Source of the DNA: a virus
Lineage: Duplodnaviria > Heunggongvirae > Uroviricota > Caudoviricetes
Direction: 5' to 3' (one strand)
IMG/VR virus record: IMGVR_UViG_2645727991_000023
Location: 1-9,973 of that record
DNA: 9,973 nucleotides
The notes beneath the pieces were generated by a model. That model saw only the letters and a program-made list of their open reading frames with translations. It was not told the DNA's origin and made no database searches. This document shows, piece after piece, positions 4,827 through 5,166 of the stretch. Made by a program: the position numbers and the translations under genes. Each line of letters starts with the position of its first letter. Positions within the stretch are counted from its first letter, which is position 1.

Positions 4827-5166
4827 TAGCTAACCAACGAAGCTAAGGTTGGTAATTAAGGAGTTCTCCACGGGTGAGGTGGAGTGCGTGCGCCGGACAC
4901 GGGTGAGCATCCGGCACTGACAGTTTACTGAAAGGATATTTCCCTGAAAAGTCAGGGCATAACGCGAAAGCGCACGGCGAGGTAGCTGGTTCATAGATAG
5001 CCTGTCGTTAAATTTTCGTCGACCGTGCGCTTCCGGTTGTGGCACTCCGCGAAATGGCGCGGCGGTAAGTATGGCGGGGTTATTCCTTCCCCGTTGAGGA
5101 CACCGGGTTGTCAGGTTGACCATACGCTTAAGTGACAACCCCGCTGCAACGCCCTCTGTTATCAAT

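Follow-up and report, generated by a model that had tools for sequence, protein, structure and literature searches.

Why should a prophage carry two adjacent hairpins between ydfC and dicF, just behind a strong AAGGAG that no gene follows? The question arises from a stretch of 9,973 nucleotides (nt) of caudoviricete DNA (positions 1 to 9,973 of the IMG/VR record IMGVR_UViG_2645727991_000023), analysed here in full and hereafter called the window, which represents a Rac/Qin-like prophage of Escherichia coli. The hairpins, H1 and H2, occupy positions 4866-4915 and form the opening part of a 340-nt untranslated region (UTR) between ydfC, placed at 4608-4826 by the annotation of an identical E. 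coli locus, and dicF, the RNA of which was located at 5168-5219 by an Rfam search of the window (75 bits). Three open reading frames (ORFs) precede them, namely a ydfA-like ORF, a 118-amino-acid (aa) ORF with a GTG start in the position of ydfB, and ydfC, and they lie about 900-950 nt past the end of the dicA-like gene. In K-12, the hairpin region is part of an extended stretch of untranslated sequence that includes dicF and is transcribed on the + strand (PMC5069750), and + strand transcription is also described for the ydfC 3′ UTR and the dicBF operon (PMC9438474); neither PMC5069750 nor PMC9438474 assigns a function to the hairpin part. Comparison with related loci points to an answer on the other strand, which we favour by a modest balance of probability: H1 and H2 would be the leader of a minus-strand promoter–leader–gene cassette whose gene has been lost from the window.

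Both hairpins are as the first-pass annotation of this DNA had described them. H1 reads CTCCAC (4866-4871)-GGGTGAG-GTGGAG (4879-4884), a 6-bp stem with a 7-nt loop, and H2 reads GCCGGA (4892-4897)-CACGGGTGAGCA-TCCGGC (4910-4915); the linker TGCGTGC between them spans 4885-4891, and the 10-mer CACGGGTGAG occurs in each, at 4869-4878 in H1 and at 4898-4907 in H2. The AAGGAG at 4858-4863 is indeed followed by no credible gene, the sole ORF being a 23-aa frame that opens with TTG and has no Shine–Dalgarno (SD) sequence. Neither hairpin is followed by a run of T, and neither was called by a scan for intrinsic terminators. Within the window alone, the repeated motif does not stand out from chance (two matches to the 10-mer with at most one mismatch were reached in 20 of 200 shuffles), and the 71-nt hairpin segment folds no better than shuffles (z = −0.33). 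It is related sequences, not the window by itself, that show the hairpins to be genuine structured elements.

Specifically, 49 distinct relatives were aligned to a covariance model, an alignment that is fitted to the model structure and hence biased towards structure. Across these relatives, 97.1% of cells pair, compared with 34-51% in slid controls, and compensatory changes are found in 9 pairs versus 3.8 ± 1.2 in shuffles, the observed value being reached in 0 of 500; the seed alignment has 97.4% of its cells paired and a covariation score of 0.181, versus 0.094 in shuffles (0 of 500). The comparative data show covariation in H1 and in a third hairpin to its left, H0. The stem of H1 is kept by covariation in at least seven versions, all of which pair: CTCCAC/GTGGAG, CTCCAT/ATGGAG, CCCTAC/GTAGGG, CCCAAC/GTTGGG, CCAACACG/CGTGTGG, CCTTCACG/CGTGAGG and TCCAAT/ATTGGG. 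Its loop is found as GGGTCAG, GTGTGAG, GTGGAAG, ATGGTG, GGCTAG, CGGCTA, GCTCCAA or CTGCAA. H0 joins CTCCTTA, CTCCTGA or CTCCAT to TAAGGAG or ATGGAG, and in copies complete with an adjoining gene it is 95-96% paired and covaries, with one pair (12/80) switching on both sides between A-U in 21 sequences and U-A in 16, alongside C-G variants.

These comparisons also show that the hairpins travel as a module. We give a slight preponderance to the view that they are the core of a portable promoter-plus-leader module of about 100-110 bp that would drive small, variable prophage genes, here termed cargo. The module's place is the early-left region of Rac/Qin-like lambdoid prophages, where its orientation is opposite to that of the operon. 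In phage phi367, 75 nt around the hairpins occur alone, ahead of a PAPS-reductase gene; many Stx2 phages carry H2 with a degenerate H1 in other gene contexts; and in phi367, Stx phages, Edwardsiella and Pluralibacter, the module is found without a DicF-type leader after it. To the left of the module, phiSTEC1589, PhiR5_2, E. coli A8 and phi367 have not ydfC but the reverse complement of a strong ribosome-binding site and start codon (for example, CAT TTCACCCTCCTTA in complete copies), so that a gene on the opposite strand begins right at the module. Divergent copies were recovered with an 18-mer from the H2 region and by two further scans of viral contigs, the 18-mer yielding copies in E. albertii, Shigella, Trabulsiella guamensis, Pluralibacter gergoviae, Edwardsiella ictaluri, E. 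anguillarum and a contig labelled Chryseobacterium.

Minus-strand genes adjoin the module in every complete copy. They are of at least ten unrelated kinds, encode 29-112 aa and are swapped exactly at the start codon; among them are phrog_2605, 7249, 4753, 4987 and 4274, an IraP-like protein, a proline-rich peptide of 30-36 aa and several genes without a family. Among relatives of two cargo genes, the module remains about 100% identical while the adjoining protein falls to 47-54% identity. In the family, an accessory gene thus varies between related phages at one position between conserved genes. No terminator was called on the minus strand after the Pluralibacter cargo, and the PhiR5_2 cargo overlaps a converging gene tail to tail.

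Some copies and cargos are of interest in their own right. In the relative L220, two module copies in the same orientation (1791-1876 and 2463-2547) lie 670 nt apart, each heading its own leftward gene, which indicates that cassettes can be stacked; a single viral contig, L224, likewise has two copies, at 4737-4827 and 13531-13616. The proline-rich peptide (MLINQFGDxxxPxPDGQVPYRPxPxP...) is a recurrent cargo that is likely to have been missed by annotation; it lies on the cargo strand in L177 (about 2660-2753), L181, L229, L241 and L220 (2353-2463), and next after it in L220 and Edwardsiella comes a protein of roughly 155 aa (phrog_6315), apparently with hydrophobic segments. In L227, a 67-aa cargo beside the module (12074-12158) matches the IraP anti-adaptor family (PF10796, 24.5 bits, cut-off 23.2), which suggests that some cargos may interfere with the turnover of host RpoS. 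L215, which appears Gifsy-like, contains Rfam matches to C4 antisense RNA (4309-4396, minus strand, 80.5 bits) and IsrK (4421-4497, minus strand, 61.8 bits), both about 1 kb downstream of the module and preceded by a long ORF (more than 200 aa).

On which strand does the module work? Helices are mirrored on both strands, and covariation therefore cannot tell the two apart. The signals that can be read on one strand only (−10 element, SD and start codons) all lie on the minus strand, to which the hairpins most likely belong. The 5′ arm of H0 complements a genuine SD (GGAGG), and a start codon stands 5-6 nt later in every complete copy. At the other end of the module, a minus-strand TAnnnT lies 4-6 nt from the GCCGGA of H2 in about 10 of 13 flank classes, compared with a roughly estimated 8% of flank classes expected by chance. 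The hexamers differ (TAACAT, TATTAT, TATCAT, TACTAT, TATGGT, TATTTT, TAAACT, TAAGCT and TAAATT), and TGn precedes them in at least six flank classes, often as TGnTAnnAT; fixed TG, TA and AT positions around a variable interior are the conservation profile of an extended −10 promoter as read from these alignments. In L181, a scan for consensus promoters calls the homologous site, TTTTCA-18-TATTAT with TG. The cassette family would thus have its own predicted promoter ahead of the accessory gene.

The minus-strand form of H2 (H2′) adds to this picture. It gains three pairs (U·G, G·U and C-G), where the + strand has A·C mismatches, to give a 9-bp stem, GCCGGAUGC/GUGUCCGGC, around the hexaloop UCACCC. 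This hexaloop is complementary at six of six Watson–Crick positions to the 6-nt spacer that separates the SD of the leftward gene from its start codon, and the two change together, E. coli-type cassettes combining UCACCC with GGGUGA, and others UUACCC with GGGUAA; at pair 4/79, U-A is seen 9 times and C-G 8 times, with no C·A discordance. Pairing between the H2′ loop and the spacer is plausible on these grounds. Complete minus-strand leaders fold into H2′, H1′ and an SD-masking hairpin, and beat shuffles (z = −2.45 and −3.12).

By contrast with H1, which keeps its pairing only, H2 is kept as a sequence. Its stem shows no covariation; stem, linker CGTGC and loop CACGGGTRAG alike hardly vary across genera, even among loci chosen on H0 alone; the two linker bases ahead of CGTGC vary (TG, GA, AT or TT). 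Rare variants of the H2 loop, taken as a test of covariation, gave four true matches only, with a compensatory change in none, and three of the four rare loop-core variants fall in orphan copies, which have lost their cargo. Among 30 distinct copies linked to ydfC, H2 varies in 5 of 24 columns, equal to the flanks (10-17%), and H1 in 0 of 19, the H2 variants including changes that break the stem (the K-12 copy and the L014 type). Such variability fits a relaxed constraint after cargo loss, and the breakage of the stem next to an intact + strand operon argues weakly against a function of H2 in that operon. The earlier proposal of one loop on two unrelated stems, acting as a recognition element, is therefore borne out in part: the shared loop holds for part of the E. 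coli lineage, and the H2 loop is conserved in related phages and, complementing the SD-to-start spacer of the leftward gene, has the look of an element that recognizes another stretch of RNA, whereas the motif is unconserved in the H1 loop, which varies freely elsewhere.

A single copy in the window, at 4836-4916, is detected by the covariance model (71 bits); it lacks the 5′ arm of H0. From about 4846 rightwards it is homologous to complete cassettes, and to the left of that point lies the end of ydfC. What remains on the minus strand is, from left to right, the left edge of the module with a remnant of the H0 loop (4846-4856, from alignments with complete cassettes); TAAGGAG on the + strand, CUCCUUA on the minus strand (4857-4863), the orphaned anti-SD arm of H0, which in complete cassettes pairs with the reverse complement of the SD; H1, the linker and H2; a predicted start of leftward transcription at 4915-4916, 7 nt after the −10 and placed by the spacing of that element to GCCGGA; a predicted −10, TAAACT (AGTTTA on the + strand), at 4922-4927, supported by the TAnnnT spacing from H2 across lineages; and a weak candidate −35, TTTTCA, at 4945-4950, 17 nt from the −10 and the same hexamer as that called in L181. 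From a breakpoint at about 4846, ydfC has taken the place of both the SD arm and the cargo, leaving an orphan promoter and leader. An orphan anti-SD, the mirror image of which is AAGGAG, explains why so strong an AAGGAG has no start codon after it. The leftward promoter of the window itself may be weak or dead; if active, it would yield a short antisense RNA opposite the 3′ end of ydfC.

For a complete cassette, we infer promoter activity, the transcription start, loop-to-spacer pairing and a regulatory role as follows. Along the minus strand, a sigma-70 promoter, often with an extended −10, would start transcription at or next to the base of H2, and the RNA would present H2′, H1′, and a hairpin of anti-SD (CUCCUUA or CUCCAU) and SD, after which a small cargo gene would begin with its start codon. 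During lysogeny, under repression of the early-left operon, the leftward promoter would be active, and the orientation of the cassette against the operon is the arrangement expected of a moron expressed from a repressed prophage. Two masks would cover the ribosome-binding region, the anti-SD lying over the SD and the H2′ loop over the 6-nt SD-to-start spacer. Hairpins of the ompA type at a 5′ terminus slow 5′-end-dependent mRNA decay, and the 5′-terminal hairpin of the cassette may shield its mRNA in the same way.

Several observations weigh against this reading. The near-invariance of the H2 sequence exceeds what a stabilizing hairpin needs and hints at a trans-acting factor. The covariation of loop and spacer amounts to essentially one evolutionary event, and four to five lineages have one mismatch. 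Folding energies of the + and minus strands give no consistent preference for either strand. In two lineages, the −10 is just 4 nt from H2, which would put a canonical start inside the 5′ arm of H2′. The promoter hexamers of the window match 8 of 12 consensus positions without a TG and, being below the threshold of the scan, were not called. Transcription of the + strand within the dicBF operon (PMC5069750, PMC9438474) leaves room for a role on that strand. The main objection is the count of G·U pairs that can form on one strand only, 17 cells on the + strand versus 4 on the minus strand, or about 8 versus 1 independent events; since the pairs exclusive to the + strand are mostly terminal, at helix ends, we do not treat this count as decisive.

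How far do these points carry other explanations? The invariance of the H2 sequence suggests specific recognition by something, and a more far-reaching form of the cassette model would have a conserved trans-acting factor (a protein from host or phage, or an RNA) bind H2 and unlock the translation of any cargo; we regard such a universal riboregulatory leader as rather doubtful. In a variant of that idea, the structure may act on the + strand and let the early-left operon read through the DicF terminator. This leads to the rival to which we would still assign an appreciable, if minor, probability: that the hairpins are a cis-acting element of the + strand transcript of the early-left (dicBF) operon. 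At the 5′ edge of the DicF precursor, they might hold back RNase E or RNase III or offer either enzyme an entry point, or their RNA might modify RNA polymerase for read-through of the DicF terminator to dicB, which would be put-like in function only. Beyond the transcription in K-12 and the excess of + strand G·U pairs, this rival draws on the constant orientation of the module relative to the operon, on its place in E. coli, L181 and L241, where a homologous long hairpin of the DicF-type leader directly follows it, and on the terminator 250 nt downstream, which must be read through for dicB expression. Yet no signal specific to the + strand accompanies the hairpins, the AAGGAG having no start codon and boxA and any similarity to HK022 put being absent; the left half of the module mirrors an SD and start codon that are functional only on the minus strand; the module occurs in phi367, Stx phages, Edwardsiella and Pluralibacter without the leader that it would serve; copies linked to ydfC, including that of K-12, break the H2 stem despite an intact + strand operon; and the G·U pairs in question are the mostly terminal ones.

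A different way to account for the invariance is that H2 acts as DNA, the inverted repeat GCCGGA-N12-TCCGGC being an operator or protein-binding site near +12 that switches the cargo gene. The conservation of H2 and CGTGC over four genera, the nil covariation of the stem and its position next to the predicted start site would all suit such a site, but the half-sites are 18 bp apart from centre to centre and face opposite sides of the helix, an arrangement that is unusual for a dimeric helix–turn–helix protein. Given that the conserved interior of H2 is also asymmetric, that its hexamer covaries with the SD-to-start spacer, a feature of the RNA level, and that no candidate regulator travels with the module, we hold this explanation to be very unlikely. 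Somewhat less improbable, though still unlikely, is that the copy in the window is a functionless, decaying relic, kept by the recent common descent of E. coli prophages and with a dead promoter. The missing SD arm and cargo, the promoter at 8 of 12 consensus positions, the stem-breaking H2 variants and an H2 variability in ydfC-linked copies equal to that of the flanks are what decay would produce; the absence of any variable H1 column in the same set, and the retention of both stems and the −10 element in the window, are not. The relic explanation is moreover limited to the copy in the window and is compatible with a cassette reading of the family. That the region encodes a small peptide, either in the 23-aa TTG frame (4849-4920) or in a 37-aa frame annotated by PHANOTATE in phi367, is hardly credible: an ORF is present in the window and the phi367 frame runs into an ATGA overlap with the next gene, but the motif copies, 29 nt apart, are in different frames, the only bases that vary between the hairpins would make one codon read Cys, Asp, Ile or Phe, VT2phi_272 has the frame closed, the TTG has no SD before it, and substitutions track base-pairing rather than codon position.

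The minus-strand cassette can be set against several known systems. The suggestion in the first-pass annotation of a put-like or nut-like antitermination signal did not survive comparison. Like HK022 put, the hairpins are two adjacent stem-loops of about 70 nt in a lambdoid early region, but the put stems are long and bulged, whereas the hairpins here have 6-bp stems, and put lies just after PL or PR on the operon strand, whereas the module follows three ORFs and has its strand-specific signals on the other strand. The covariance model (R1), run over the HK022 immunity region with filters off, gave no correct-strand match at putL or putR, the best nearby matches scoring 1-2.5 bits, and putL and putR, read directly, look unrelated. 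A lambda-type nut site was likewise rejected, as there is no boxA (CGCTCTTA-like) within 250 nt beyond matches at chance level and the loops, of 7 and 12 nt, are not pentaloops of the boxB type.

The moron concept of Hendrix and Juhala is said to describe an extra gene with its own promoter, lying between conserved phage genes and expressed from the prophage. The cassettes resemble morons in their small accessory genes, which differ between related prophages within a conserved operon, in their predicted sigma-70-type promoter and in an orientation that would permit expression under early-operon repression; they differ in that promoter, leader and ribosome-binding site form one conserved cassette reused for many unrelated genes, and in that the cassette survives as an orphan after gene loss. 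A literature search on a lambdoid moron hotspot at this position found nothing specific. An anti-SD and SD in a covarying hairpin are also a feature of SD-sequestering leaders such as ROSE and fourU thermometers, and a stem-loop at the very 5′ end of the predicted mRNA is one of ompA-type leaders. In complete cassettes the anti-SD is kept by covariation as in such leaders, and in the window the SD arm of the hairpin is missing. Resemblance in sequence to ROSE or fourU is absent, as is an Rfam match, and the loop-to-spacer complementarity and the sequence-invariant H2 are features of the cassette only. In the antisense RNAs C4 of P1 and P7 and CI of P4, hairpin loops similarly complement the ribosome-binding region of the same transcript; those RNAs are processed, trans-acting repressors with two target sites, whereas here there would be one leader with a single 6-nt target, and Rfam finds no C4 match in the window. 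The hairpins lie physically within a known UTR of the dicBF operon, that of the DicF precursor and ydfC 3′ UTR, but the module is separable from DicF and occurs without it. The module behaves like the promoter–leader part of a moron combined with an SD-sequestering leader.

If the hairpins are indeed such a leader, part of the ‘long untranslated region’ ahead of DicF would be the stump of a cassette on the opposite strand and not an operon leader, a conclusion that would extend to E. coli K-12 and thousands of other strains. Among 5,426 complete E. coli genomes, 4,326 match 4827-5167, and in 3,489 the match extends over at least 80% of that stretch; K-12 Qin is 97% identical to it. A further prediction of the cassette reading is that an antisense promoter faces ydfC, with a potential to disturb the expression of dicBF. 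The combination of a leftward extended −10, GCCGGA-N12-TCCGGC, a covarying hairpin and an anti-SD/SD hairpin would provide a simple marker for small and often overlooked accessory genes of enterobacterial prophages, and the complete cassette, in which the ribosome-binding region would be masked twice over, would offer a compact leader design of natural origin that is directly testable. Were a universal leader to prove correct, a whole class of variable prophage genes would stand under one switch.

As for the surroundings of the hairpins, the annotated genes of the identical E. coli locus comprise replication genes, a cro-like gene, a cI/dicA-like gene, a gene for a minus-strand Zn-binding protein, ydfC, dicB and genes for a DUF1482 protein, an exonuclease, xis and int. 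A second small gene on the opposite strand lies within the ydfA-ydfC stretch (4315-4515, minus strand); it encodes a putative zinc-binding protein of the ECs_2282 family (66 aa), and its upstream region is unlike the hairpin module. Downstream, a 97-aa ORF with a GTG start (5289-5582) matches DicB in residues 36-97 only (Pfam DicB, 1e-36), and the annotated dicB of the identical genome corresponds to 5394-5582. In Rfam searches at the gathering threshold and with E values up to 10, only DicF passes and 4846-4930 is free of any overlapping match; a mascRNA-like match at 5029-5100 (E = 5.3) is at chance level and was rejected, and a search for tRNA and tmRNA found none. Pairing of the hairpin loops with DicF was also rejected, as CCACGG and CCGUGG share only 6 nt of complementarity and do not covary with the DicF variants of EcA8 and phiSTEC1589. 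Two further likenesses, checked by ARAGORN only, we take to be coincidence, that of ACGGGUGAG to a segment of 16S rRNA and that of CGGGUAAGAAUCCGG to a tRNA T-arm.

The DicF leader has a modular structure of its own. Its segment 5036-5158 is 78-82% identical to a stretch of P1 and P7 just downstream of the C1-controlled ban promoters, where an overlapping stretch is annotated as a ‘dicF-like region’; the segment shares 89% identity with stretches from cdtI and Stx2c phages and 86% with one from an Actinobacillus phage. These homologues indicate a separately mobile, structured module upstream of DicF proper. Positions 4965-4977 and 5023-5035 form the arms of a long hairpin whose tip is hypervariable, and the arms change together in other genera (GCGCACGGCGA...TCGACCGTGCGC in the window, GCGCACTCC...GGAGTGCGC in L181); this hairpin (4965-5035) may be a double-strand-specific processing site in the DicF precursor. 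A smaller hairpin at 4942-4957, CCCTGAAAAGTCAGGG, overlaps the candidate leftward −35, and its stem is kept in phiSTEC1589 (CCCTGAAAAGCCAGGG); its sequence, though not its stem register, resembles lambda boxB (GCCCUGAAAAAGGGC). Between DicF and dicB, 5229-5247 and 5358-5376 form a 19-nt inverted repeat that is 89% complementary, the first arm of which lies about 10 nt after the DicF terminator, near the 3′ end that, according to the literature, RNase III makes in the 72-nt DicF.

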